A DNA stretch of 64,000 nucleotides from Bacteroidia bacterium (GCA_965279035.1 OZ257142.1:1801239-1865238); one strand, 5' to 3'; shown: positions 3,016-61,209, counted from the stretch's first letter. The notes: generated by a model not told the origin, from the letters alone. Made by a program: numbers and translations.

Positions 3016-5364
3016 ATGTCAATTCCATTTTCCTTTGGTAGGAAAGTGCTGACACTATTCCTGTTTCTATATATTCCTATGCATTATTGTAGTGCACAGG
3101 ATTGTGACAGTCGTTTGTTTTTGCATTTCTCCAATCCTTCTGCAAAGCCCGTTGCAGTAAAACTATTTTTCAAGAATTCAGAACGAACACTTTCGTTTAA
3201 TTCATCCATAATGCTTTCTACATTATGTCCCGGACAATACCGCATTGTTTTGCTCCAAGCAGGATATCTTCCCTTGGATACGAGTTTCACACTGGCTAAA
3301 TCTCTCGATTTAATTCTTCCACTTATTCCACGTGTGAAAGAATTGAAAGAACTTGAAATTCATGAGGATCATCTCGATCAACAAGGGCGATTAACGCTGC
3401 AATCATCTCAACTGAATGCATCACAATGGCAAGCAAATGCAGGCAAACCATTGGGCGAAATGTTGAAGGAGGCGAGTGGAGTGAGTAGTTTGCAATCGGG
3501 TCCAACCATTTCGAAACCGGTCATTCATGGTTTACATAGCAATCGGGTAGTATTGATTAACAATGGCATTCGGCTGGAAAGTCAGCAATGGGGCGCCGAA
3601 CACGCTCCGGAGATTGATCCATTTAATGTTGTGAGTGCAACAGTTTTAAAAGGAGCTGCCAGTTTACGCTATGGTTCAGATGCGATAGCAGGCGTTGTAT
3701 TACTTCAACCTAAAACGATGGATTTTGAGAAAGGCACACGAGGCGAAGTAGTTCTCAATGGAATGAGCAATGGTAGAATGGGCGCTGCATCTGCACGAAT
3801 TGAACATGCGTTTGGAGGGAAATTCAAAGGCATGGGAATTCGAATTCAAGGAACACTAAAAGATGCAGGAAATATAAAAACACCTACCTATTATTTGAAA
3901 AATACAGGCATGTGTGAAAACGATGTTTCAGCGACTTGGATGTATACGAATAAACGTGTAGCAATGGAAATTTCTGGGTCGATTTTCAAAACTCAAATCG
4001 GGATTTTTACAGGTTCACATGTGGGGAATCTCAAAGACTTGGAAGCTGCTCTTCAAAGCGTTTTTCCTAAAGATTCTTCCGGATTCTCTCGCAAAATTGA
4101 ACGTGGTTTTCAAGAAGTAAAACACGAAACATTCAAAGCACGTTTTTGCTATCATTTAAATGAATACAAACAGCTAGAAATTGTATACGGACTTCAACGC
4201 AATCACCGTCAAGAATACGATAGCGGCTTGCCTTTAAGTACCAATCCTGCGATATTAAATGCTGCTCAAGCCGACTTTTTAATTAGCACCAATACACTCG
4301 ATGTTTTGTATTCTGAGAAGCTCAATGGGTTGTATTCATTGTCGATAGGAGCAAGTTTGCTGAGTCAAGGAAATGTGTTTAAAGGATTAGAATACCGTGC
4401 ATTAATTCCCAATTTTCGAAACAATGGCGCAGGTAGTTTTATCGCGCTTTCGCGAAAGAAAAAAAGGTTGATTATCGAAGCTGGTTTACGTTACGATTAT
4501 CGCTGGTTGGAGTGTTATCGATTGGATTATACAACACTCGAAACCTTTGCAACATTGCATCAATTCCAAAATGGTTCCTTTTCACTTGGAGGCTTGTATC
4601 AATTCAACGAAAAGTTCAGCATACAGACAAATGTAGGTTCAGCATGGCGTGCACCCAACGTGAATGAATTATACGGAAACGGAGTTCATCAAAGTGCTGC
4701 TTCATTCGAAATTGGAGATAGTACTTTACTTAGCGAACGTGCTTATAATGCTATCATTTCAGGCCTTTGGGAAAGTAGTAAATCACGTTTCGAAATTGGA
4801 ATTTATCGAAATCAACTAGATCATTTCATTTTCTTAAAACCACTTCTTGTCCCAGTAATTACCATTGCCGGAGCTTATCCAGCCTTTCAACAAACTCAGG
4901 TAAATGCAGTATTCACTGGACTCGATTTCGATTTTAAAACCATCCTCTGGAGAAGTCTTAAAATAGGAGGGAAGTTGGCTCTGATTCAAGGGTATAATCG
5001 AACAATTCATGATTATTTAGTCTACACTCCTTCGAACCGAGGAGACATGTTTTTGATGATCGAAGGCAATGCGAATGAACGTGGGAAAAAGTCCTATGTC
5101 AAGTTGAGTGCTCAGTATGTAGCTCGACAAAATCATGTACCATCGAATAGCGATTATGTAGCTCCCCCGGCAGACTATTTTCTGATGAATTTCGATGCTG
5201 GATTATCAGTAGGGAAGAAGCATCCAATCGATTTGGGATTTTCAATTTACAATGTATTCAATACACAATACCGAGAGTATTTAAATCGCTTTCGGTATTT
5301 TGCAAATGAGCAGGGACGATCGTTTGTTCTAAGAATTTCTGTCCCCTTTACTCTAAAAAAATAA
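3016..5364 (+). CDS. TonB-dependent outer-membrane receptor
   Basis: Plug-domain motifs are present (LQSGPTISKPVIHGLHSNRVVLINNGIRLESQQWG..., VLKGAASLRYGSDAIAGVV). The long beta-barrel region ends in an aromatic-rich C-terminus. 782 aa. Confidence 0.85.
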   Translation: MSIPFSFGRKVLTLFLFLYIPMHYCSAQDCDSRLFLHFSNPSAKPVAVKLFFKNSERTLSFNSSIMLSTLCPGQYRIVLLQAGYLPLDTSFTLAKSLDLILPLIPRVKELKELEIHEDHLDQQGRLTLQSSQLNASQWQANAGKPLGEMLKEASGVSSLQSGPTISKPVIHGLHSNRVVLINNGIRLESQQWGAEHAPEIDPFNVVSATVLKGAASLRYGSDAIAGVVLLQPKTMDFEKGTRGEVVLNGMSNGRMGAASARIEHAFGGKFKGMGIRIQGTLKDAGNIKTPTYYLKNTGMCENDVSATWMYTNKRVAMEISGSIFKTQIGIFTGSHVGNLKDLEAALQSVFPKDSSGFSRKIERGFQEVKHETFKARFCYHLNEYKQLEIVYGLQRNHRQEYDSGLPLSTNPAILNAAQADFLISTNTLDVLYSEKLNGLYSLSIGASLLSQGNVFKGLEYRALIPNFRNNGAGSFIALSRKKKRLIIEAGLRYDYRWLECYRLDYTTLETFATLHQFQNGSFSLGGLYQFNEKFSIQTNVGSAWRAPNVNELYGNGVHQSAASFEIGDSTLLSERAYNAIISGLWESSKSRFEIGIYRNQLDHFIFLKPLLVPVITIAGAYPAFQQTQVNAVFTGLDFDFKTILWRSLKIGGKLALIQGYNRTIHDYLVYTPSNRGDMFLMIEGNANERGKKSYVKLSAQYVARQNHVPSNSDYVAPPADYFLMNFDAGLSVGKKHPIDLGFSIYNVFNTQYREYLNRFRYFANEQGRSFVLRISVPFTLKK

Positions 5365-8340: not shown

Positions 8341-9425
8341 TTAGCATCTAGGCTGAAACCTCACCCCCGGCCTCTCTCCACCGGGAGAGGGGAGTTTATT
8401 AAGGTACTTTTGCTGGTCTGCTTCTAAGTGTTTCGCATTTGAAAATTCAATTTCTATTACAGTTGAATGATTTACAGTAAATTGAATCTAGCTCAAAAAG
8501 TAGGATGTAAACACGGATTTAGTGCGCTAGCCTGTCTGGGCGGCGAGGCAGCGTTTCGCCATTCCTTAGAAAAATATAGCTCTTAGCACATAGGGCGAAA
8601 AAAGGCTTTGCGCGCTGAAGCATCGTCCAGACTTGAATTTCTTTGCATGCACGCTGAGCTTGTCGAAGCGTGTTTCAAGACAAGAAAGTACCACGTCGTA
8701 GACATTCATGTACAGCCCAAAAGAAAACTGAATCTCGAATTTCCCAGAATGATTATTAATATTTAAATGTAAACACGGATCTAATTCGATAGGAGACCTC
8801 ACCCCCAGCCCCTCTCCTTCCCGTAGGGACCACTAAGTGGCAGGAGAGGGGAGTTTGTTACGTTACTTGTGCTGTTCAGAATGAGCGGTCAGACTGCACT
8901 TCTCATTTTTAGAAAAATTCAATTCTAATACAGTTAAATGATTTTATTAAATAGAATCTAGCTCAAATTGTAGGATGCAAACACGTATCAAGTGCGCTGG
9001 CCTGTCTGGGCGGCGAGGCAGCGTTTCGCCATTCCTTAGAAAAATATAGCTCTTAGCACAATGGGCGAAAGAAGGCATTGTGCGCAAGCAGCATCGTCCA
9101 GACTTGAACTTCTTTATTCGTAAGTGTTTATTTTATAAAGGAACTCATGAGGGCTTCGCCGTTGCTTCCTTTCTTGTATCAAGACAAGAAAGGAAGACGT
9201 CGTAGACATTCATGTAATGACTCAAAAGAAAACTAAATTTCGAATTTCAATGAATGTTTATTGATACTAAAATGCAAAATCGAATCTTTGCAATTGCCCG
9301 TCATGCCGGTGAGGAAGTATCTTCAAGACTTGTGAATGTAAGTTGAAATTTTTCGAAGAGTTTATAAAAGCATATTTCAAGACAAGAAAGGAATACGTCT
9401 TAGACAAACATGAATGATTAATTGA
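8341..9425. repeat. Tandem array (~2.3 copies) of a ~450-500 bp non-coding unit with conserved internal hairpins
   Basis: Near-identical blocks gcgct(a/g)gcctgtctgggcggcgaggcagcgtttcgccattccttagaaaaatatagctcttagcaca at 8523 and 8993. The cctcaccccc(g/a)gcc(t/c)ctctcc...ggagaggggagttt inverted repeat occurs at 8359 and 8807. tcaagacaagaaag(t/g)a(c/a)(c/g)acgtc(g/t)tagaca occurs at 8675, 9179 and 9375. No ORF is conserved across copies. Confidence 0.7.
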
Positions 9426-9484
9426 AATAAAGCTGCCAAAGGTTTATTTTATCAATATCATATAGAATTTCAAAAGCAAACAGT

Positions 9485-12724: not shown

Positions 12725-12918
12725 ATTCATAAACGCATTTTCTATCTTACCAAAAAGCGGCAGGGGTTGCCCATAGGGACAGGCATGGAAAGCCCGATTG
12801 CGCCATTAGTGTGTGTGCCGGTACCGAAAGCTTTCGGTATGGTAGGAAAGCCGTTTGTCCGCCCAAATAAATCGACATCGTATATCGTATATCGTATTCC
12901 GTATATCGTAGTTCTATA

Positions 12919-13866: not shown

Positions 13867-13966
13867 AGATATTTTAGTAAAACTGTTTTCTAATTTGAAT
13901 TCAATAAAAGAAATATTTTCGAATGAATGAATTATTTTCTCAATCCTAATTCCTAATTGTCAATTC

Positions 13967-15371
13967 GTAATCAGTACTGTCCGGTTAAAGTTTAAATCAG
14001 AAAAAAGGAGCGACCATTTCGATCACTCCTTTTGTGATTATTTTTGAGTTACGACACACCAAAATAATCATGAGTAAAAGTAAATATTTTACCGGACAGC
14101 CGATTTACAGTCAACTCCTTTCTTATCTGCCTCAGACGAAAGTAAAGAACATAGCTGATGAGCATAACGCTGATAGGTATTATAAGAACTTCAGGACTTA
14201 TACGCACCTAGTAACGATGCTTTACGCAATCTTTAATCGGTGTACAGGTATCCGAGAAGTGACCTCAGGCCTACTTGCCTGGGAAGGCAGGATACAGCAT
14301 TTAGGAATCAACTACTTTCCCAGAAGGAGCACGATTTCAGATGCAAATACCAGTCGACCAGCCGATGTCTTTGAAGATATTTACTACTGGCTTTATGACC
14401 GATACAAGCATTTTTTACCGGACAGCCGAAGTAAAATCGCATCCCGGCTTTATATTGTTGACTCGACAACGATTCAGTTGTTTCAGGAAGTTTTGAAAAA
14501 TGCCGGTCGTAATCCCGCCGATGGTAAGCGCAAAGGCGGTATTAAGGTGCATACTTTAATGAGGAGTGATCAAGACGTGCCTTGCTTGATAAGGTTCTCT
14601 GCTGGAGCTGGAGCCGACAGCCCATTTCTGCAGAACATACACCTGCAACGTGGGTCCATTGTGGTGTTTGATCGTGGTTATAATGATTACAAGCAATACA
14701 ACCGTTTCTCGGAAGAAAATGTCACATGGGTGACCCGATTACGAAACAACACCGTGATCAAAGTCCTGCGGGAAAAGAAAATTTCAGACAAGGAAAAGCA
14801 GAACGGAATTTTGCTCGACCAGATTATAGAAATGGGCCACACCAAGCACAATAACAATACACGAGTGAAGGCACGTCTTATAAAATATGAGGACAAAAAA
14901 TCGAAGAGGATATTTGAATTCATAACCAATAACAATCAATTCAAACCCTCCTCAATCGCACTGTTTTATAAAAATCGTTGGCAGATCGAATCGCTATTTA
15001 AGCGTATCAAACAGAACTATCCGATGCAAAGCTTCCTTGGAGAGAGCGAAAATGCGATCAAAATCCAAATCTGGTGTGCCCTGATCGCTGACCTTGTCTT
15101 AAAAATTGTCAAAGCAAGAGCTGGTAAAAACTGGTCGTTTTCAAATCTTGCAGCCATGGTCAGGCTACATTTGATGACCTATATCAACCTTTTTGAATTC
15201 CTCATCAATCCTGAAAAATCGCTAATTAGAAATCAAATTAAATCCTTTCAACTGCCATTGTTCCCTCCATAGGGGGCTTTATTTTAAATAAATACCATCA
15301 ACACCCGCATTTACTGCAACTACAGAAGGTAAATCATGCAATCTCAATTTTAACCGGACAGTACTGATTAC
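13967..15371 (+). mobile_element. IS4-family insertion sequence with ~23-28 bp terminal inverted repeats
   Basis: Left end gtaatcagtactgtccggttaaa (13967-13989) is the exact reverse complement of the right end tttaaccggacagtactgattac (15349-15371). A possible 5-bp flanking direct repeat aattc lies at 13962-13966 and 15373-15377. The element carries one DDE transposase ORF. Confidence 0.8.
14061..15272 (+). CDS. IS4-family DDE transposase
   Basis: Catalytic-region motifs YIVDSTTIQLF, VVFDRGYNDY and YKNRWQIESLFKRIKQ (the conserved RWxIE..F..LK block of IS4 transposases). The likely start is MSKSKYFTG at 14061, inside the longer track ORF. Confidence 0.8.
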   Translation, partial: KIIMSKSKYFTGQPIYSQLLSYLPQTKVKNIADEHNADRYYKNFRTYTHLVTMLYAIFNRCTGIREVTSGLLAWEGRIQHLGINYFPRRSTISDANTSRPADVFEDIYYWLYDRYKHFLPDSRSKIASRLYIVDSTTIQLFQEVLKNAGRNPADGKRKGGIKVHTLMRSDQDVPCLIRFSAGAGADSPFLQNIHLQRGSIVVFDRGYNDYKQYNRFSEENVTWVTRLRNNTVIKVLREKKISDKEKQNGILLDQIIEMGHTKHNNNTRVKARLIKYEDKKSKRIFEFITNNNQFKPSSIALFYKNRWQIESLFKRIKQNYPMQSFLGESENAIKIQIWCALIADLVLKIVKARAGKNWSFSNLAAMVRLHLMTYINLFEFLINPEKSLIRNQIKSFQLPLFPP

Positions 15372-16804
15372 AAATTCGTAATTCTTTTTCTCCTCCTAAA
15401 ACCAATCGTCAAAAAAATCAATTGCAATAAAATTCCAGGTAAATAATATCGGTTATGAATCACTTCTAAGGAACACGCTGCCAGCGACATTGCCAAGGGA
15501 ACACTCATCAATAAAACCAGAATTGGATCAATGCTACGATATAAATACATGCGTAGAATTTCTAAGCCAATTAACAGGATATAAATTCCATAAAAAAGCA
15601 TGTATAAATAGTGATTATTCATTTTTAAAAAAGCAGTATTCCAATAACTATACATCCAAATCATACGATTTGAATAGCTATTTAATCCAATAGATTGCTC
15701 ATTGATTTTATCTAACAAGGGTTGATGATGTTGAGATTGATACTGTTTAATAAATTCGCGATACTCTTGTGCGCTGCTATAAATACACAGACTTTCTTGT
15801 TGTTCGGTCGGTAAAGTCCACAATCCGCGTTGGAGTGAAATGGATAGGTAATTTACCGGATCGGCTTTAATTCCATCCCAACAAACATGCATGCAATACT
15901 CTTGAATTTCTTTGGGTTTTAATCCTTTGTGCGAAAGCTGTGAGGTAATGTCCCACCAATGTCCACTTTGGGCAACAAAGGTTGCATCGTGTAGCTGTCT
16001 TTTCATATTAAAAGTAGCTGCAGAACGATTTGGATCGTAGCCATCTTCATGCACTACACGGTTCCATAAATTCCAGGAAAACCCTTCACGTAAGGACCAT
16101 GTATTATATACTACATGATTAAATCCCGATTGAATGAAAGGGAAAATTAAAAAGCAAGCAGCAGCCAATGTTAAACGAATGCGATGTAGTTTGAAATACG
16201 GATGAAACAATAAAACAAGGAAGACAATAGGTAGCATTACACCCGCAACTGGTCGCACCAAAAAGGTATATCCGCTTAAGCAAAATGCAAGAATAATCCA
16301 GGTGTTCTTATGTTTCAACACTCCACATTGGAAGCAATATAGGCTAGCCAATAAACAGGTGATGAACCATGTTTCGGACATCAGCAAATGCGCATAATTG
16401 AAAAAAGGGATGTAGCACAAATAAGCTATCACGGTAAAGTTACATGCGGTTGTAGATGTATAATTTCGACAAATCAACCAAATAAAACGAGCTGAAGCGA
16501 GGTAAGCAATAAATTGAATTTGCAGCACCGACTGAGCAAACGAACACTGGAAAATGGTACTAACTAATTCTGCGATGTATAATAAAAACGGATAACCTAG
16601 AGGACAGTAATATAATATGGGTTCTTGAAACGACGGATAAAGTTCTTCCTGAATCCAAATTCCTTCGAATAAAAAATGTTTGTACATATAATACCAAGCC
16701 GGATCGTTCAAGAAATGTGGCATAAGAGGAATTCCACCATGCAAAACACATTGAACTAAAATGGTACTAACTAATAAATAGGAACTTACCTTTTTCAACA
16801 TCAA
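15368..16804 (-). CDS. Polytopic membrane protein, putative GT-C-type (ArnT/PMT-like) glycosyltransferase. Its stop codon lies inside the IS4 terminal repeat.
   Basis: About 11 predicted TM helices followed by a ~200-aa soluble C-terminal domain, an architecture typical of GT-C (family 39/83) enzymes. The last codons AAT TTG TAA are contributed by the IS right inverted repeat (15368-15376). Confidence 0.4.
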   Translation of the reverse strand: MMLKKVSSYLLVSTILVQCVLHGGIPLMPHFLNDPAWYYMYKHFLFEGIWIQEELYPSFQEPILYYCPLGYPFLLYIAELVSTIFQCSFAQSVLQIQFIAYLASARFIWLICRNYTSTTACNFTVIAYLCYIPFFNYAHLLMSETWFITCLLASLYCFQCGVLKHKNTWIILAFCLSGYTFLVRPVAGVMLPIVFLVLLFHPYFKLHRIRLTLAAACFLIFPFIQSGFNHVVYNTWSLREGFSWNLWNRVVHEDGYDPNRSAATFNMKRQLHDATFVAQSGHWWDITSQLSHKGLKPKEIQEYCMHVCWDGIKADPVNYLSISLQRGLWTLPTEQQESLCIYSSAQEYREFIKQYQSQHHQPLLDKINEQSIGLNSYSNRMIWMYSYWNTAFLKMNNHYLYMLFYGIYILLIGLEILRMYLYRSIDPILVLLMSVPLAMSLAACSLEVIHNRYYLPGILLQLIFLTIGFRRRKRITNL

Positions 16805-33901: not shown

Positions 33902-34408
33902 TTATTCGGATTTCAATTTCATAAAATTAAACAAGCCAATCATCTCTACCGAATAATCCCACATTTCAATGCTACTACTATATGGAATGACCGGCATTAC
34001 AGCCATTGGTTCATAAACTGTTTGATCTAATTTTAATATATCCAATGAAAATTCTAATGGATATTCAGTGCCATTTCGAATGATAAAAACACTGTGTTTA
34101 TTTGCTTTTTTTTCTTCCTCTGTGCTTCCTTTTGTTCCTATGGAAACCAAAATATCAATGGTTCCTTCGGGGGCTTTAATGGAGGTGTATTGGTCGAGTT
34201 GATTTAAATCGAACTTTTCTTCAAACAAATCAAAATTCAAAATAGCATAATGAAAACGTACCGAATCAATGGGAATTAAGCGAATGCTTATTTTTGAATA
34301 CATCGGAAATGCAAAGCCAGCAATGGCTGATGTATCTGCCTGCTGAGCTTGAGCCGAACAGCTTATCAACAAGGCGAATATGATGAGTGTTTTCCTGATT
34401 AATTTCAT
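33902..34408 (-). CDS. Hypothetical secreted protein
   Basis: Signal peptide (CSAQAQQ). Confidence 0.4.
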   Translation of the reverse strand: MKLIRKTLIIFALLISCSAQAQQADTSAIAGFAFPMYSKISIRLIPIDSVRFHYAILNFDLFEEKFDLNQLDQYTSIKAPEGTIDILVSIGTKGSTEEEKKANKHSVFIIRNGTEYPLEFSLDILKLDQTVYEPMAVMPVIPYSSSIEMWDYSVEMIGLFNFMKLKSE

Positions 34409-34460: not shown

Positions 34461-34625
34461 TTTATTCTCCGGATTGAAATCCGAGGTTGCGGGGGTGGGG
34501 ATTATCTACGTCTTATTCATTTATTAGCCGGATTGAAATCCGGGGTTGCGGGGTTTTATTATCTACATCTTATTCATTTATTCCCCGGATTGAAATCCGG
34601 GGTTGCCATTTCATTAATAAATCAT
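34461..34625 (+). repeat. Tandem ~58-bp repeat (2.7 copies) built around the palindrome ccggattgaaatccgg
   Basis: ccggattgaaatccg(a/g)ggttgc at 34468, 34527 and 34583, each followed by the similar attatctac(g/a)tcttattcatttatt. Confidence 0.8.
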
Positions 34626-34663
34626 GTATTAACGAATCAGCATACCAGCACACCAGCACATCA

Positions 34664-34990
34664 GCACACCAGTTTAATGTGCTAATCCGATAGCTATCGG
34701 ATAGTTGATGTGCTAATGTGCTTATGGAAAGATCAAATCTGCAACTTTCCGGTAACCTAACAGCACACTAATTCAATGTGCTAATCCGATAGCTATCGGA
34801 TAGTTGATATGCTAAAGTGCTAATGGAAAAACACAGCTCCAACCTTCAAGTAGCCTAACAGCACATCAGCATATCAGCACACCATTAAATCAATTCAATG
34901 TGCTAATTCGATAGCTATCGGATAGTTGATGTGCTAATGAACTAATGGAAAAGAACACTGCTCAAACATAACGCTAACATTTTGCAAACA
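34664..34990 (+). repeat. Three tandem copies of a ~110-bp REP/MITE-like element with core palindrome ATCCGATAGCTATCGGAT
   Basis: Core aatgtgctaat(c/t)cgatagctatcggatagttgat(g/a)tgcta at 34676, 34785 and 34897. Each copy carries a ctaacagcaca(c/t)cagca(c/t)a(c/t)cagcacacc tail. Confidence 0.8.
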
Positions 34991-35112
34991 CCCGAGGTGA
35001 CAAATTGGGTGAATGAATTGATTTAGTTTAGAAAAAACTCTAAATTAACGATTGCCTCAAATGCTCAGAATGCTTGACTTTGCTGATGTTTTGTTTTAGG
35101 GTGTTTTTAAAA

Positions 35113-35793
35113 TCATTCAGGAATGTAATTAATTATTCCCTGGTCGCCACTTTGGTAAAAACTCTCTTCTTTTTTAGCAAATTCAATAGACTTATCATGT
35201 CGGATTTCCAATGTTTGGCTGTCAAGCCACTTTGCATATACAAATTTTCCCTTTGAATAGAAGTTAAAAACAGATCCGCCACCAGATGCCCAACTTATAC
35301 TTGAGCTTGTGTCTTTGTATTCACCATTCACATAACTTTCTATAATTTCAAATGTCTTTTTTCCGTCTGGTGCAATGAGTGTCAAAAGGTGAATAGCGCT
35401 ATACTCGAACTTTGGTTTTACTCTTCGTTTCGCTTTTTCCTTTTCTGTTGAAATTTGAATTAGGAATTTGTCAAGTTCTTTTTTGCGTTTTTCTATTGTC
35501 TTGTTATCAGCACCAAGTCCTTTCCAAACTTCAAGGTCTTTACCCGTTTCAATAATTTCTTTTACTTTTTTATAAACTGTTGAGTCAAGTAATTTTGTTT
35601 CCCATTGTGCCAATGCAAGTCCAAACAAACTGTTGTTACGGTCGTCATTGTCGTTAAACATTTCAGCAAAGTCGTCTTGAATTTGTTTAGAAATGTCAGC
35701 GGGATGTTGTCCTTTATTGTATAAATCAAAGAAGGTTTGATAAATGTCTTGAAAGGTGTCATTTCCGTTTATTTTCGTATTCCAAGTCCCCAT
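35113..35793 (-). CDS. DUF4259-like hypothetical protein
   Basis: N-terminal MGTWNTKINGNDTFQDIYQTFFDLYNKG pattern resembles the DUF4259 N-terminus. 226 aa. Confidence 0.4.
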   Translation of the reverse strand: MGTWNTKINGNDTFQDIYQTFFDLYNKGQHPADISKQIQDDFAEMFNDNDDRNNSLFGLALAQWETKLLDSTVYKKVKEIIETGKDLEVWKGLGADNKTIEKRKKELDKFLIQISTEKEKAKRRVKPKFEYSAIHLLTLIAPDGKKTFEIIESYVNGEYKDTSSSISWASGGGSVFNFYSKGKFVYAKWLDSQTLEIRHDKSIEFAKKEESFYQSGDQGIINYIPE

Positions 35794-35834
35794 TTTTCAG
35801 TCTGTTAGCGTACTGTTTTTAAATGTCTTATTAG

Positions 35835-35965
35835 CCTATTTCACACCATCAAATCAAATTAATGTGCTAATCCGATAGCTATCGGATAGCTAATATGCTA
35901 ATGTGCAGATGAAAAAGAAAACTGCTGCAACTTTCCGGTAACCTAACAGCACACCAGCACACCAT
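35835..35965 (+). repeat. Fourth copy of the ~110-bp palindromic REP-like element
   Basis: aatgtgctaatccgatagctatcggatagctaatatgctaatgtgc...ctaacagcacaccagcacaccatcacatc. Confidence 0.8.
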
Positions 35966-35973
35966 CACATCAA

Positions 35974-37062
35974 TTATTTAAACCAGCCTTTTCTTCTAAA
36001 ATAAAACACCATACCAATGGAAATTAAAATCATAATAATCCAAACAATAGGGTAGGCCCATTCTTGATCCAATTCTGGCATGAACTTGAAATTCATTCCG
36101 TAAACTCCTACGATAAATGTTAATGGGATAAATATTGTTGAAATAATCGTCAGTGTTTTCATGACGTTATTCATCTTATTACTCAATGAACTTAAATACA
36201 CGTCCATCATGCCCGAACTCAAGTCACGAAAGGTTTCTAGCGTATCAATAGCATGCACACAATGATCATACACATCACGTAAATAAATATCCGTATTGCC
36301 TTTTAAATGCAGGTGTTCGCTTTTCGATAAACTACTCACCACTTCACGCATTGGCCAAATGGATTTTCGTAAATAAATTAATTCCCTTTTTAATCCATGC
36401 AATATTTGTAAATCGCTCGTTTTTGCATCATTTAATAATTGAATTTCTGTTTCTTCCAAATGATCGCCAATCCGCTCCAGTACTACAAAATAATTATCTA
36501 CAATGGCATCCAATAAACTATATAAAATATAATCAGTTCCACTTTTTCGAACTTTCAAATTTCCCTTTCTCAAACGATCTCTCAAACCATCAAATAAATC
36601 ACCTTCATCTTCTATAAAACTAATAATTGTATTATTTAATAGAATGATACTTAATTGTTCTGTCTTTACTTGTTTCTCTTTATCGTCGTAACTAATCATT
36701 TTAACAACCACATACAAATACGCTCCGTAATCCTCCATTTTCGGGCGTTGTGTGGGATGAACAATATCTTCTTGCACTAAACTATGCAAACAAAATACAC
36801 GACCTAATTGCTCAACAACCGATGGTTCGTGTATTCCGATGACATTAATCCAGCGTGTTTGTTCCGAACTAACATCGTCTTTAATATCAGCAATACGGAC
36901 TTTTTTCTTCTCTGTAAAATGAGATTCATCCCAAGTGAGAATATCTGCATGGACTTCAAAATCGCGTGTTTCGCCTACATAAGCTACTGTTCCAGGTGCT
37001 AAACCTGCTTTACTTCCAAGGCGACGTTGCCGATGACGATGCGGTGTGTTGTACTTTTTCAT
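35974..37062 (-). CDS. corA: Magnesium/cobalt transporter CorA
   Basis: C-terminal two-TM region with the signature YGMNFKFMPEL (GMN motif). 362 aa. Confidence 0.85.
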   Translation of the reverse strand: MKKYNTPHRHRQRRLGSKAGLAPGTVAYVGETRDFEVHADILTWDESHFTEKKKVRIADIKDDVSSEQTRWINVIGIHEPSVVEQLGRVFCLHSLVQEDIVHPTQRPKMEDYGAYLYVVVKMISYDDKEKQVKTEQLSIILLNNTIISFIEDEGDLFDGLRDRLRKGNLKVRKSGTDYILYSLLDAIVDNYFVVLERIGDHLEETEIQLLNDAKTSDLQILHGLKRELIYLRKSIWPMREVVSSLSKSEHLHLKGNTDIYLRDVYDHCVHAIDTLETFRDLSSGMMDVYLSSLSNKMNNVMKTLTIISTIFIPLTFIVGVYGMNFKFMPELDQEWAYPIVWIIMILISIGMVFYFRRKGWFK

Positions 37063-37079
37063 CTGCTCGAATATCGTAA

Positions 37080-38060
37080 CTATTTGCTTTTGTGACGCAC
37101 TACACTCAATGGCCCATCAATGCGGTTCCCATCGGGTAAAATCAATTCGAATTGATACGTTCCACTGGGCAAACCAGCACCATCCCAATCGTTTCGATAA
37201 TTATCCGTTTTAAAAACAACCAGGTCTTTTTTATTTCGAATCGTTAAACGACTATAGCGAGGCAATCCTTCGATATAAAATAAATCATTAAATCCATCTC
37301 CATTGGGTGTAACCACTTCGGGAACGTGCATGCGACCTGCTGGTAATATTTCACCCGAAGGAGGAGCGATAACCTGCACTTCGGTTGGTTTTTCTACTTC
37401 AGGTGTACAGCTACCTAAATACACATTGTCCACATAGAGATAGGCCAAACGAATGTATTGTGTTTGATCATTTGGCTGAAGATTCGTACTTGCATCGTTA
37501 CGGAAATTACCAATGGTGACAAACTGTTCACCTCCTTTAGCTTTGAATGTAAAGGATAGGATTTTCCAAGTTTTTCCTGTATCCGAAATGGCAAGGTATT
37601 TTTGACTTTTGAATTCTGGTTCGCGGATAATGGTGTTCCAGTCGTTCGAGCGTATGGAATCTTTGCTAAGCGCGATGCCCAATTCATCGGTAAAATAGCT
37701 CGATTTTTCTGCTGCCGAAACGGAGATTTTTAAACACAATTCTTCACCCGGAATGAGCATTCTGCTTAATCGAACTTCGAGGTATTCTCTGAAATTGGGA
37801 TTGTCGGCATCGTAAAGTATCAAGCCGGCAAACTGTTGTCCTTCAGCAGCCTTTTGCTTTCCATGTGGCACCTCTCCCGGTTTGATTAAATCGGGACTAC
37901 CAATTCCTGCAGGAAACCAAGGACTTGCCTGCTCAATATTTCCTGAATATTTCGATTTTACAGGCTTCAACGAACGTTCGAAGCTCCCATTGGGTATCAA
38001 ATTCTGCCCACAAACAGGCAGCACAGAAAGTAGAAAAATTATGGTCAGGAAGCGAATCAT
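37080..38060 (-). CDS. T9SS cargo protein with type-B (gliding-motility-associated) C-terminal domain
   Basis: Signal peptide. C-terminal VTPNGDGFNDLFYIEGLPRYSRLTIRNK...NYRNDWDG...GTYQFEL matches the TIGR04131-type CTD. Confidence 0.7.
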   Translation of the reverse strand: MIRFLTIIFLLSVLPVCGQNLIPNGSFERSLKPVKSKYSGNIEQASPWFPAGIGSPDLIKPGEVPHGKQKAAEGQQFAGLILYDADNPNFREYLEVRLSRMLIPGEELCLKISVSAAEKSSYFTDELGIALSKDSIRSNDWNTIIREPEFKSQKYLAISDTGKTWKILSFTFKAKGGEQFVTIGNFRNDASTNLQPNDQTQYIRLAYLYVDNVYLGSCTPEVEKPTEVQVIAPPSGEILPAGRMHVPEVVTPNGDGFNDLFYIEGLPRYSRLTIRNKKDLVVFKTDNYRNDWDGAGLPSGTYQFELILPDGNRIDGPLSVVRHKSK

Positions 38061-38084
38061 GCAAGGGGCGCAAGATAGTATTTT

Positions 38085-38435
38085 AGTGTGCTGATGTGCT
38101 AGTTTTTTGATGTGCTAGTTTTCCCGATTGCAATCGGGAGATGTACTAGTTTGTAGCTGCAGTATACCTCCCGCATCCCCGGATTTCAATCCGGGGGGAG
38201 ATTACCCTAATCTTTCACATCGCCCCAATCTCTCAATCACCCGCTTCGACAAGCTCAGCGGGCGGACTCTAGTCTTTCTCTAACCTAAGAGCACACCAAC
38301 CCACCATCACATCACTTTAATGTGCTAATCCGATAGCTATCGGATAGCTAATGTGCTCATGTGCTGATGGAAAAGAACACTGCTCCAACCTCGCACTAAC
38401 CTAACATCACATCATCACACCATCACACCAGCCTT
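38085..38435. repeat. Composite repeat block: inverted copy of the ccggattgaaatccgg element plus a fifth copy of the 110-bp palindromic element
   Basis: ccccggatttcaatccgggggg (38169-38190) is the reverse complement of the 34.5-kb repeat. The palindrome cccgattgcaatcggg is at 38135. The core aatgtgctaatccgatagctatcggatagctaatgtgct is at 38319, with a cacaccatcacaccagc tail. Confidence 0.75.
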
Positions 38436-38445
38436 TAGACTTGCA

Positions 38446-38643
38446 CTATTATTTTAGTTGAGATATCTTGACTGAAAATAAACAAAGAAACGGGGTGAAC
38501 TATCTCATCAGCTAGGTCTTTAAATCCCTAAGGTGTGTATGAGTCCCCGTTTCCTTTAACCATGTTGTTAATGGCCAGCTAGAATTTTAGACTTCGAGAT
38601 CTATTAAAGGTTTTAGCCAAGAGCAACACTTAAAAACAAAAGT
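38446..38643 (+). ncRNA. Candidate bridge (seek) RNA encoded in the IS110 non-coding 5' end
   Basis: ~200 bp non-coding left end upstream of the recombinase. This is the position where IS110-group elements (e.g. IS621) encode their structured bridge RNA. It contains the internal complementary segments gaaacggggtg / cccgtttcc. Confidence 0.35.
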
Positions 38644-39624
38644 ATGAAGAAGAACTTTATTGGCATTGATGTGTCAAAATTAACGCTGGATGTTTATTTA
38701 CATAATCAATCTCAGCACAACGTCTTTAGCAATGATATCGATGGTTATACACTGATGCTTGCTTGGTTAAAGCAGTTGAAAGTGAGTGTAAAATCGATGG
38801 CCATTTGCTTTGAGCATACGGGTATTTATAGCGAGGATTTATCTGTGTTTTTGAGTGAAAAGAAGATCTGTTTTTACATGGAATCCTCCTTAAACATTAA
38901 GTATTCTATTGGACTTCAGCGAGGCAAAAATGATAAGATAGACTCCCAAAGAATCGCAAATTTCATTGCATTACATGCAGAACAGCTTAGCCCAACGGTA
39001 CTATCAAAGAGTGCTGTAGCGCAGCTGAGAAAGCTCTTGAGTATGCGTTCGCATCTGGAAAAAGAGAAGATAGGCATCAAAAACAGACTTAAGAACTCAT
39101 CAAAAACCACTGGTGTAGATATAGTTTTTCAAATCGAAACGGATCTGTTAAAGACCTTTAACGATAAACTTAAACTGGTAGAAGAGGAAATCAAATCATT
39201 GATAAAGTCAGATGATAATCTTCGTCAAATCGACGAATTAGTTCAATCTATAAAAGGAGTTGGACCAGTGTCGAGTTGGTATTTAATCGCCACAACAAAT
39301 GGCTTTGAATACTTCGACAATGCTCGTCAATATGCATGTTATAGTGGAATAGCTCCATTCGAAAAATCATCAGGAACATCCATAAAAGGGAAAACACAAA
39401 CCGATAGAAGATCAAATCGAAAAATCAATGGAGTATTAACAATGGCGGCGCGTTCGGCAGTATTAAATAACACCGAAATGAGAGAATATATGGAGCGTAA
39501 AATCCAGGAAGGAAAACATTATAATTGTGCACTCAATGCAGTCAAAAACAAACTTGTATCAAGAGTATTTGCTGTCGTAAAAAGAAAAACACCCTATGTT
39601 GATCTAAAAAAATACGCTGCATAG
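38644..39624 (+). CDS. IS110-family transposase
   Basis: N-terminal FIGIDVSKLTLDVY (DEDD/RuvC-like N-domain). The C-terminal KGVGPVSSWYLIATTNGF...SGIAPFEKSSGTS block is typical of IS110/IS116/IS902 transposases. Confidence 0.85.
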   Translation: MKKNFIGIDVSKLTLDVYLHNQSQHNVFSNDIDGYTLMLAWLKQLKVSVKSMAICFEHTGIYSEDLSVFLSEKKICFYMESSLNIKYSIGLQRGKNDKIDSQRIANFIALHAEQLSPTVLSKSAVAQLRKLLSMRSHLEKEKIGIKNRLKNSSKTTGVDIVFQIETDLLKTFNDKLKLVEEEIKSLIKSDDNLRQIDELVQSIKGVGPVSSWYLIATTNGFEYFDNARQYACYSGIAPFEKSSGTSIKGKTQTDRRSNRKINGVLTMAARSAVLNNTEMREYMERKIQEGKHYNCALNAVKNKLVSRVFAVVKRKTPYVDLKKYAA

Positions 39625-40094
39625 ACTTGCATAAGTCCTAGAATACACACCAACCCACCAGCACATCAGATAAGTAAGATTCTTACTCTCCTCATCTTAT
39701 CATCCCTAAAATTTCCGGACTTGGGGGCTTCATTACAAAATCCATTTTCGTTTAAAGAGTGTAGAGATAAAGTTTTCAACAGAGCTAGTGTTATTTTGAC
39801 ACAATTAATTGGCAATGTGGGTGCTGATAGGCCTTTTATGTGGCTTATTCTGTTGAAAATCAAGGATTCTGTAAATTTGGTATTTCCATCTGATTGGTCT
39901 ATTTTTATGCTCCCTAAATTTCCCTTAGAAGTACCCTAATCTGTTTTGCTTTGAAAAATTTTGACGTGCTTTCTCGCTTCTCAACCCAAAACACTGCATT
40001 TTCTGTGTGGTGTAAGAAAAACAGCAAGTCTGTAACGTTTCCGATTTCATCCCGTATGCTTAGTGTTTTGAAAACTACCCTTTTCCCCGCATCC

Positions 40095-61176: not shown

Positions 61177-61209
61177 GAAAAAGCCGTCCTAGTTTGGACG
61201 GCTTTTTTT
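61177..61209 (+). terminator. Rho-independent terminator of the giant gene
   Basis: aaaaagccgtcc-tagtttg-ggacggcttttttt, a 9-bp GC-rich stem followed by a T-run, 20 bp after the stop codon. Confidence 0.8.

Follow-up and report, generated by a model that had tools for sequence, protein, structure and literature searches.

Some intergenic repeats belong to dispersed families of small elements and others are traces of local duplication, and one locus of a Bacteroidia bacterium (OZ257142.1) raises the question of which kind it holds. The stretch analysed here, referred to as the window, is 64 kb long, and the repeats are found at positions 34461-38435 around the genes for CorA and for a CHU_C / type IX secretion sorting-domain protein. 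Five of the repeats are centred on the 18-bp palindrome ATCCGATAGCTATCGGAT. An earlier note on this DNA had proposed a system of repetitive extragenic palindromes (REPs) and bacterial interspersed mosaic elements (BIMEs), or of miniature inverted-repeat transposable elements (MITEs). We consider it on balance probable that the locus consists of two layers: old local arrays that flank CHU_C-corA, and a REP-like hairpin module, found across the Bacteroidota, in each unit of the arrays. From the earlier proposal, the BIME-type mosaic of modules and the REP-like palindrome are retained, while the repeat unit of about 110 bp is not a MITE and shows no sign of belonging to a dispersed family. Statements on non-dispersal cover the window and the public scans described below.

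Two old arrays flank the CHU_C-corA operon

The palindrome ATCCGATAGCTATCGGAT was found exactly at 34685, 34784, 35870, and 38328, and with one mismatch at 34906. There were no further matches in the 64 kb, and the chance expectation was 0.01. As claimed before, the repeats are real and palindrome-centred, with four exact copies and one 1-mismatch copy of the 18-mer in one orientation. Each palindrome lies within a repeat of 93-129 nt, with 70-100% identity between the copies and the reference. Alignment of the copies gave the anatomy of the unit: a run of AGCACAYC octamers, AATGTGCTAAT, the palindrome, TAGCTAATGTGCT...GATGGAAAAGAACACTGCTCCAACCT...ACCTAAC, and then the next octamer run. A repeat unit of this kind had been described as a ~110-bp element; its length is not fixed at 110 bp and ranges over 98-132 bp. 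The ends of the unit are direct repeats (octamer run ... ACCTAAC), not inverted ones. Neither terminal inverted repeats nor a target-site duplication were found for the units, and the unit is therefore not a MITE.

All five units are given on the + strand. Unit 1 (34638-34761) starts with an octamer run of period 8 at 34638-34672, as detected by Tandem Repeats Finder, carries its palindrome at 34685-34702, and has a tail ending in ACCTAAC. It is followed by unit 2 (34762-34859, palindrome 34784-34801) and unit 3 (34860-34978), in which the 1-mismatch palindrome occupies 34906-34923 and the tail ends in CGCTAAC at the junction with an inserted gene cassette. Unit 4 (35844-35973, palindrome 35870-35887) stands directly after the stop codon of corA. 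Unit 5 (38281-38433, palindrome 38328-38345) is located in the divergent promoter region that separates CHU_C-corA from a giant open reading frame (ORF; 39951-61157, 7068 aa), and its orthologue in a relative is a pair of tandem units that have no palindrome. The genes between the two groups of units, corA (35974-37062) and CHU_C (37080-38060), are both on the - strand and were identified by ORF calling and Pfam. Every repeat at the corA locus is placed between ORFs, as the earlier note had stated.

The closest relatives of the window are uncultured Flavobacteriales (CorA 84% identical), whose contigs L121-L124 are syntenic with it and keep the order CHU_C, corA, a 167-aa gene, and Band_7. Upstream of CHU_C, the relative carries two tandem units, a CCGGATT hairpin, and a CTTCGACAAGCTCAG module in the same order as the window, and downstream of corA it has one degenerate unit broken up by other hairpins. 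In a more distant contig (L248, CorA 78% identical), GTGCT/AGCAC octamer runs are present at both sites and the assembly breaks inside them. Two old arrays thus flank the CHU_C-corA operon, with four units downstream of corA and one upstream of CHU_C. Judged by synteny, both are ancestral at their positions. The three sites described before, whose positions were confirmed, reduce to these two arrays (units 1-4 and unit 5). Between window and relative, the unit is 86-87% identical over ~87 nt and the adjacent coding DNA 72-79%.

Elsewhere in the window, over 60 kb, nothing like the ~110-bp unit was detected. Metagenomes were also scanned with a 19-mer from the body of the unit, which gave weak evidence: among the matches listed, most were due to chance and 4 were real, all of them 100% identical to the relative's syntenic unit pair and from that locus. 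A metagenome scan with a 26-mer (palindrome plus local flanks) gave 0 matches, and a BLAST search of plasmids with a unit gave none. On these comparisons, the ~110-bp unit appears to be an ordinary lineage-specific local repeat mosaic without sign of a dispersed MITE or REP family. Expansion, contraction, and homogenisation of the arrays take place locally, and the arrays serve as a landing zone for a cassette and an IS110 element.

Distribution and origin of the 18-bp palindrome

The earlier note regarded confinement to this locus as the mark of a local duplication. Within the window and the scans made, confinement was found for the unit but not for the palindrome, which is phylum-wide and has a sibling at 12822 within the window itself. 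The exact 18-mer was searched in 185,579 species, with one genome per species, and was found at at least 120 public loci, compared with ~9 chance matches estimated for the whole collection. Judged by the titles of their records, 117 of the 120 listed loci belong to Bacteroidota; the others are a Burkholderiales metagenome-assembled genome (MAG), a MAG labelled Bifidobacterium, and an "uncultured bacterium." The listed carriers include Pedobacter, Mucilaginibacter, Chitinophagaceae, Saprospira, Cyclobacteriaceae, Flavobacteriales, Bacteroidales, and Marinilabiliales, and the palindrome was found in the orders Sphingobacteriales, Chitinophagales, Flavobacteriales, Cytophagales, and Bacteroidales. 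A scan of viral contigs gave 0 matches. A sequencing adapter or assembly artefact was ruled out, since the copies come from complete isolate genomes and from MAGs of many projects, are almost restricted to Bacteroidota, and include compensatory variants.

The flanks of the 18-mer are unrelated between lineages, and no recurrent gene family neighbours it among the listed loci, which rules out an operator of one specific gene. Most copies at the listed loci (98 of 125) lie outside ORFs of at least 100 aa. The gaps that contain them are convergent in 28 cases, tandem in 47, and divergent in 11, and in tandem gaps the copies tend to be nearer to the stop codon of the upstream gene. The base at -1 is T in 3 of 121 copies and the base at +1 is A in 7 of 121. 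The idea that the flanks usually lengthen the palindrome was rejected, as 96 of the 121 copies are not extended. A general link with 7-8-mer tandem repeats was also dismissed as weak only: such repeats are near 4-7% of the copies, compared with 1-2% of random positions, which are mostly coding. In three Chitinophagaceae genomes (L042, L059, and L060), the 18-mer lies within a conserved ORF near the N-terminus of the protein, in a frame reading SDSYR, and could be an in-frame insertion of the palindrome as six codons.

The unselected variants keep the 14-bp core CCGATAGCTATCGG, and their outer two pairs change in a compensatory manner and end at 18 bp. Among the loci analysed, 14 unselected copies of the core had other outer bases, and in 12 of these the complementarity went on for exactly two pairs and no further. 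The outer-pair variants were TCCCGATAGCTATCGGGA, seen six times, TACC..GGTA, ACC..GGT, TTCC..GGAA, and AGCC..GGCT, and the centre was always self-complementary (AGCT or TGCA). About 19 unselected members, including five extra exact copies, occurred in 877 kb of palindrome-bearing DNA; 700 kb of unrelated metagenome DNA contained four perfect palindromes with arms of at least 9, none of this family. In the window, all six exact 18-bp perfect palindromes fit the family pattern (four copies of ATCCGATAGCTATCGGAT, TCCCGATTGCAATCGGGA at 38122, and TACCGAAAGCTTTCGGTA at 12822). With the 1-mismatch copy at 34906, the pattern has 7 matches compared with 0.09 expected, and 6 of the 7 are in one locus. 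The palindrome thus belongs to a Bacteroidota-wide family of 18-bp palindromes of the form NN-CCGA-WW-GC-WW-TCGG-N'N'.

From the comparison of related sites, the palindrome appears to come and go as a discrete piece. The five window units read AATGTGCTAAT(CCGATAGCTATCGGA)TAGCTAATGTGCT, and both units of the relative read AATGTGCTAAT-TAGCTA... in the same alignment. The difference, AAT(CCGATAGCTATCGGA)TAG versus AAT-TAG, is a clean indel of 15 nt placed in the middle of a small palindrome, GCTAATTAGC, and seven independent contigs agree exactly in the form without the 18-mer. A second case was found in two Chitinophagaceae genomes (L106 and L064) that are 82% identical over 1.7 kb spanning one palindrome copy. 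There, GGTAAA(TCCGATAGCTATCGGATG)CAGGG in L106 corresponds to GGAAAA(GT)CAGGG in L064, that is, a filled and an empty orthologous site that differ by a 16-nt indel. The same alignment contains the reciprocal case: another 16-nt palindrome, GCTTAACCGGGTTAAG, is found within the loop of a CCCGATAGT/CATCGGG hairpin in L064 and is missing from L106. Several composite repeats of 35-140 bp, located at non-syntenic loci in many Pedobacter species, include the 18-mer; in one of these families it sits on the loop side of a CGTCA..CTGAA...TTCAG hairpin, and the hairpin also occurs nearby without the 18-mer. Around the 12822 palindrome, the intergenic DNA could not be aligned with that of relatives. These alignments show the presence or absence of a palindromic piece of 15-16 nt, often at the A/T centre or in the loop of an existing hairpin. 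The 18-bp palindrome inside the units would accordingly not have belonged to the ancestral unit, and we infer gain rather than loss because the same sequence sits in unrelated hosts.

In the two-layer model, the palindrome would be a REP-like non-autonomous hairpin that spreads at the DNA level, either through an activity that acts in trans and recognises structure or through short-patch conversion, with other copies as donors. A process at the DNA level rather than the RNA level is favoured because the centre is self-complementary. The perfect symmetry may be upheld by template switching from arm to arm. In this genome, the palindrome would have entered one unit and then reached all five by concerted evolution of the arrays.

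A bolder version, which we hold to be doubtful, is that the palindrome, with an effective insert of 15-16 nt, is itself mobile within and between Bacteroidota genomes and is inserted into A/T centres or hairpin loops by a putative structure-specific enzyme. Such a piece would be smaller than any known bacterial mobile element. If it were mobile, NN-CCGA-WW-GC-WW-TCGG-NN would describe a phylum-wide population of such elements, the lower size limit for mobile DNA would be a new one, and an unknown enzyme would be implied.

The indels also bear on a purely local history, in which tandem duplication and unequal crossing-over built the arrays, the palindrome arose in place or was perfected there by template switching at a quasi-palindrome, and its recurrence elsewhere reflects convergent selection for a favoured hairpin. 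The units are indeed limited to two syntenic arrays, the insertion point is the centre of GCTAATTAGC and has TAGCTA in common with the centre of the insert, and perfect symmetry including the central 4 nt is the product expected of template switching. However, convergence is a very unlikely source of one and the same 18-mer in over 100 unrelated contexts from several orders, the Chitinophagaceae filled and empty sites have no local template for the insert, and variation affects the outer pairs but not the 14-bp core. We therefore judge a local history unlikely.

The palindrome might instead be a duplex-DNA binding site of a conserved dimeric Bacteroidota protein (nucleoid-associated, regulatory, or a recombinase), in which case the arrays would group such sites together and serve to organise or regulate the CHU_C-corA region. 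Such a role would suit the perfect dyad symmetry including the centre, the invariant half-site CCGATAG, the phylum-wide conservation of the sequence, the presence of one unit where the promoters of CHU_C-corA and of the giant ORF diverge, and the better conservation of the unit than of the flanking genes. It is nevertheless quite unlikely, given that the listed loci have no recurrent neighbouring gene family, that the copies favour convergent gaps and the 3' ends of genes over promoters, and that the closest relative lacks the palindrome at the same locus. Strictly compensatory outer pairs are, moreover, unnecessary for protein half-sites.

Comparison with known classes of element

Knowledge of REP-type repeats comes almost wholly from Proteobacteria, where each kind is specific to its lineage and linked to REP-associated tyrosine transposases (RAYTs). 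The elements described here are notable for their perfect 18-bp palindrome with an invariant 14-bp core, for their unusually broad conservation, for their nesting within other repeats, and for their clean presence or absence at orthologous sites. Like REPs, they are short palindromes, mostly intergenic and downstream of genes, and occur singly, clustered, or nested with other repeats. REPs reach tens or more copies per genome; for the palindrome family, the count was the ~19 unselected members in 877 kb given above. REPs are defined as imperfect palindromes of 20-40 bp; the palindrome agrees with them in its intergenic and 3' placement and, being perfect and 18 bp long, stands at the edge of that definition. 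It also differs in its self-complementary centre, in its appearance as a 15-16 nt indel, and in being common to several orders, whereas REPs are specific to a species or genus.

Two REP superfamilies, tagged by GTAG and CGTC, have been distinguished, and the CGTC type was reported in Bacteroidetes (Di Nocera et al., 2013; PMC3733652). The Pedobacter 18-mer sits in CGTC-type REP hairpins. Base frequencies over 121 copies gave no GTAG or CGTC tag at positions -8 to -1 or +1 to +8. We found no publication on the core sequence of the palindrome or on REPs in Pedobacter and no matching Rfam family, which agrees with the earlier remark that such systems are not commonly described in Bacteroidota.

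With the BIMEs of enterobacteria, the locus shares a mosaic of short reusable modules in intergenic gaps. BIMEs alternate Y and Z REPs in orientation, whereas the units here are all head to tail and, as far as seen, restricted to the locus. A hairpin family plausibly moved in trans by a single-copy HUH/Y1 enzyme would also recall the REPIN-RAYT system (REPIN, REP doublet forming a hairpin), except that the mobile unit of that system is an inverted doublet and the palindrome here is single in each unit, with the units in one orientation. Subclasses 2.4 and 2.6 of TnpA(REP) occur in Bacteroidetes, and subclass 2.6, which is mostly found there, is flanked by "atypical secondary structures" without GTAG (Quentin et al., 2018; PMC6006769). 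The 18-mer is absent from the supplement of that paper.

To find an associated RAYT, as the earlier note had suggested, a motif scan of 127 loci and the window was performed, and no link to the palindrome emerged. The scan returned one RAYT-like ORF (L100 1576-2142, 188 aa), with the NHVH...YIHHNP motif of the Bacteroidetes subclass 2.6. It is flanked on both sides (region 1480-2200) by inverted CCGTCGCCCCGGGGTCTGGCC... hairpins that are unrelated to the 18-mer, and this region of a Chitinophagaceae MAG is a candidate REPtron.

MITEs such as Correia/NEMIS, RUP, and BOX are likewise small, non-coding, repeated, and open to insertion sequence (IS) entry. The unit differs in having no terminal inverted repeats, target duplication, or apparent parent IS, and in its tandem arrangement at conserved positions.

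A role at the RNA level was considered as well, in which a structured 3' untranslated region or a small-RNA element (a stabiliser, a processing site, or a protein-dependent terminator) explains the retention of the palindrome. The copies tend to lie downstream of genes, one copy (L016) is located between a stop codon and a textbook terminator, the minus-strand (transcribed) unit folds stably with z-scores of -1.4 to -6.5, and the compensatory outer pairs preserve a 9-bp stem. Nevertheless, a U-tract is absent, and none of the palindromes has a T-tract or overlaps a terminator-like site; the lineage does possess canonical terminators (window 61178-61207 and L016), and the palindrome is not a canonical intrinsic terminator. 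No Rfam family matched at the gathering score in the window, and at E ≤ 10 the locus gave nothing credible. When seven units were folded together, the consensus had 0 compensatory pairs and a positive (unfavourable) covariation term. With no compensatory pair and no Rfam match, a structured RNA is unsupported for the unit. An RNA loop would also need no self-complementarity, yet the centre is always AGCT or TGCA. We regard an RNA-level role as very unlikely to explain the retention of the palindrome. Since the copies are mostly downstream of genes, they would be transcribed as stem-loops of 7-9 bp without a U-tract, and any effect on the cell would therefore resemble that of REPs, as hairpins at mRNA 3' ends, rather than termination or gene-specific regulation. 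If the palindrome were instead a protein or RNA signal, it would be a conserved Bacteroidota signal previously unassigned.

Several observations weigh against the two-layer model. The indel between window and relative is not polarised as gain or loss, since the outgroup contig L248 ends before the core. Presence or absence was seen in two orthologous cases and one paralogous comparison. The totals and taxonomic skew of the 18-mer scan are lower-bound impressions. There is neither a conserved tag nor a target duplication at the 18-mer, and the sole signal is that T is rare at -1 and A at +1. No enzyme was linked to the palindrome in the 127 loci and the window, where the lone RAYT-like ORF has other cognate hairpins. 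Finally, the better conservation of the unit than of the flanking coding DNA hints at constraint or exchange, for which a view of the arrays as a junk mosaic does not account.

Inserted elements and other modules

The array downstream of corA is interrupted by an integron-type gene cassette (34979-35843, - strand). It comprises an attC-like stretch (34979-35112), an ORF of 226 aa (35113-35793, -, from ORF calling), and a 5' leader that reaches a GTTATAG-like boundary (35794-35843). The 226-aa protein is 80-89% identical to homologues in Haliscomenobacter and many other taxa, far above the values for CorA and its homologues, and these homologues are found mostly on contigs of ~1 kb. At the nucleotide level, L250 matches window 35092-35841 with 90.4% identity, and beyond the boundary of the cassette the similarity is lost. 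In Haliscomenobacter hydrossis (CP002691, 651-660 kb; L253), a homologue lies in a same-direction array beside an integrase (PF13495 + PF00589). The spacers of that array are ~135 bp long, are bounded by CTATAAC...GTTATAG, and fold as long imperfect hairpins, which is the architecture of attC. The spacers of both L250 and L253 have this full architecture, and the attC-like stretch of the window is decayed, as it folds no better than shuffled sequence (z = +0.26). Judged from these comparisons, the 226-aa gene is a recent, horizontally acquired integron-type cassette. It had been labelled DUF4259, a label that was not upheld: no Pfam match was obtained even at E ≤ 10, and there was no PADLOC match. 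Elsewhere, this widely transferred gene occurs in integron-like arrays with GmrSD and reverse-transcriptase genes as neighbours.

At the insertion point, unit 3 ends in ...CGCTAAC, the insert follows, and unit 4 then resumes with CACACCATCAAATCAA..., exactly the unit consensus. From these junctions, the insert lies at G|TTAGG of the unit on the gene strand, and its 5' end is the GTTATAG-type boundary of the cassette. Taken together with the identity of the cassette, they imply that units 1-4 once formed one tandem array downstream of corA that was later split. Repeats had previously been said to frame a gene block that included the 226-aa gene; the arrays do flank CHU_C-corA, and the framing of the 226-aa gene is secondary. 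The cassette entered at a GTTAGG site between units 3 and 4.

This arrangement invites the idea that the ~110-bp units themselves are attC/attI-like recombination sites of a degenerate cassette array, which we consider highly improbable. The GTTAGG (ACCTAAC) motif of a unit is indeed the exact entry point of a genuine integron-type cassette, and the relative carries AACGTTATAG at the corresponding gap. But the likeness to an integron cassette concerns the 226-aa gene alone, which elsewhere comes with ~135-bp attC-like hairpins and an IntI-type integrase. An attC site has inverted R''/R' (RYYYAAC...GTTRRRY) and L''/L' cores, which fold into an imperfect hairpin of 55-140 nt. The units have one GTTAGG-type (GTTRRRY-like) core, without the inverse core or paired L arms, their ends are direct and not inverted repeats, and no integrase was found among the ORFs of the window. 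Cassettes are also established to enter secondary GTT sites.

The second insertion is an IS110-family element (38434-39643, + strand, boundaries good to a few bases) inside the octamer tail of unit 5. Its transposase ORF (38644-39624, +) was identified by the Pfam domains DEDD_Tnp_IS110 and Transposase_20. The displaced remainder of the octamer tail, TACACACCAACCCACCAGCACATCAG, lies at 39644-39672 (+), and the sequences on either side of the IS join to the uninterrupted ...CAGCACATCAGCAGAAGTAAGATTCTTACT of the relative. One unit is thus interrupted by IS110, as had been noted, and the target is the octamer tail of unit 5, ~90 bp from its palindrome. With its integron-type cassette and its IS110 element, the locus illustrates that incoming DNA can use a repeat array as a landing pad. 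Palindromes and octamer runs also break assemblies, as several contigs end in them, and they seed spurious small ORFs.

Besides the octamer runs, the mosaic at the corA locus includes three hairpin types and the CTTCGACAAGCTCAG module. Between unit 1 and a 168-aa ORF (33902-34408, -, from ORF calling), a tandem repeat built on the hairpin CCGGATTGAAATCCGG occupies 34461-34606 (+). Tandem Repeats Finder and a pattern search gave a period of 57 bp instead of the 58 bp stated earlier, with 2.5 copies of 57-59 bp and 87% matches, and each copy carries the hairpin CC(CC)GGATTGAAATCCGG(GG). The relative has this hairpin too, at the syntenic spot (L122 5824-5843). The inverted copy of the CCGGATTGAAATCCGG hairpin reported near 38.17 kb was recovered at 38170-38196 (-), 92-96% complementary over 24-25 nt, and its orthologue in the relative is L122 3291-3308. 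At 38086-38139 (+), direct repeats of GATGTGCTAGTTTT lie either side of the second 18-bp perfect palindrome, TCCCGATTGCAATCGGGA (38122-38139). The CTTCGACAAGCTCAG module at 38244-38258 (+) has a second exact copy at 8654-8668 (-) and also occurs in the repeat mosaics of the relative. A CIRCE/HrcA box (CIRCE, controlling inverted repeat of chaperone expression), suggested by TTAGCAC/GTGCTAA, was ruled out, since the GTGCTAA motifs are direct and not inverted repeats.

The third 18-bp perfect palindrome, TACCGAAAGCTTTCGGTA (12822-12839, no strand assigned), is located between convergent genes, beside ATCGTAT heptamer repeats at 12877-12910. In the relative L257, a different hairpin takes the position of TACCGAAAGCTTTCGGTA, with at least 3 repeats of ATGTCGCCCCGATGGGGCTGG at 4035-4225 in the convergent gap downstream of a PorP/SprF gene. 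Runs of 7-13 bp tandem repeats (ATCGTAT, AATTACGA, and GTAAATCATTGTA) were observed in intergenic gaps of the window (12877-12910), L256 (2620-2665), and L122 (6487-6780), and in one case the relative, with a PorP/SprF protein 78% identical, has them at the matching place. This suggests a lineage-wide tendency to build tandem arrays of 7-13 bp.

Three further regions of the window were recorded. An IS4/IS5-type insertion sequence at 13955-15383 encodes a transposase with DDE_Tnp_1 and DUF4372 (14034-15272), has 43-nt inverted repeats that are 84% complementary, and separates PorP/SprF and PMT_2 genes that are adjacent in L257. The intergenic region 8384-9430 consists of ~2.5 tandem copies of a 470-505 bp unit, which holds a 138-nt core 91% identical between copies (8478-8615 and 8948-9085). 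The region also contains a hairpin with a 13-bp stem (9165-9196), GGAGAGGGG-type hairpins, and the exact CTTCGACAAGCTCAG module at 8654-8668; it had no Rfam match, and its repeats could be paralogous non-coding RNA genes. The non-coding stretch 39646-40079, upstream of the giant ORF, is 86% identical to L122 2493-2927 over 436 nt, compared with only 72-79% for the coding DNA beside it, and may be a conserved leader or regulatory RNA.

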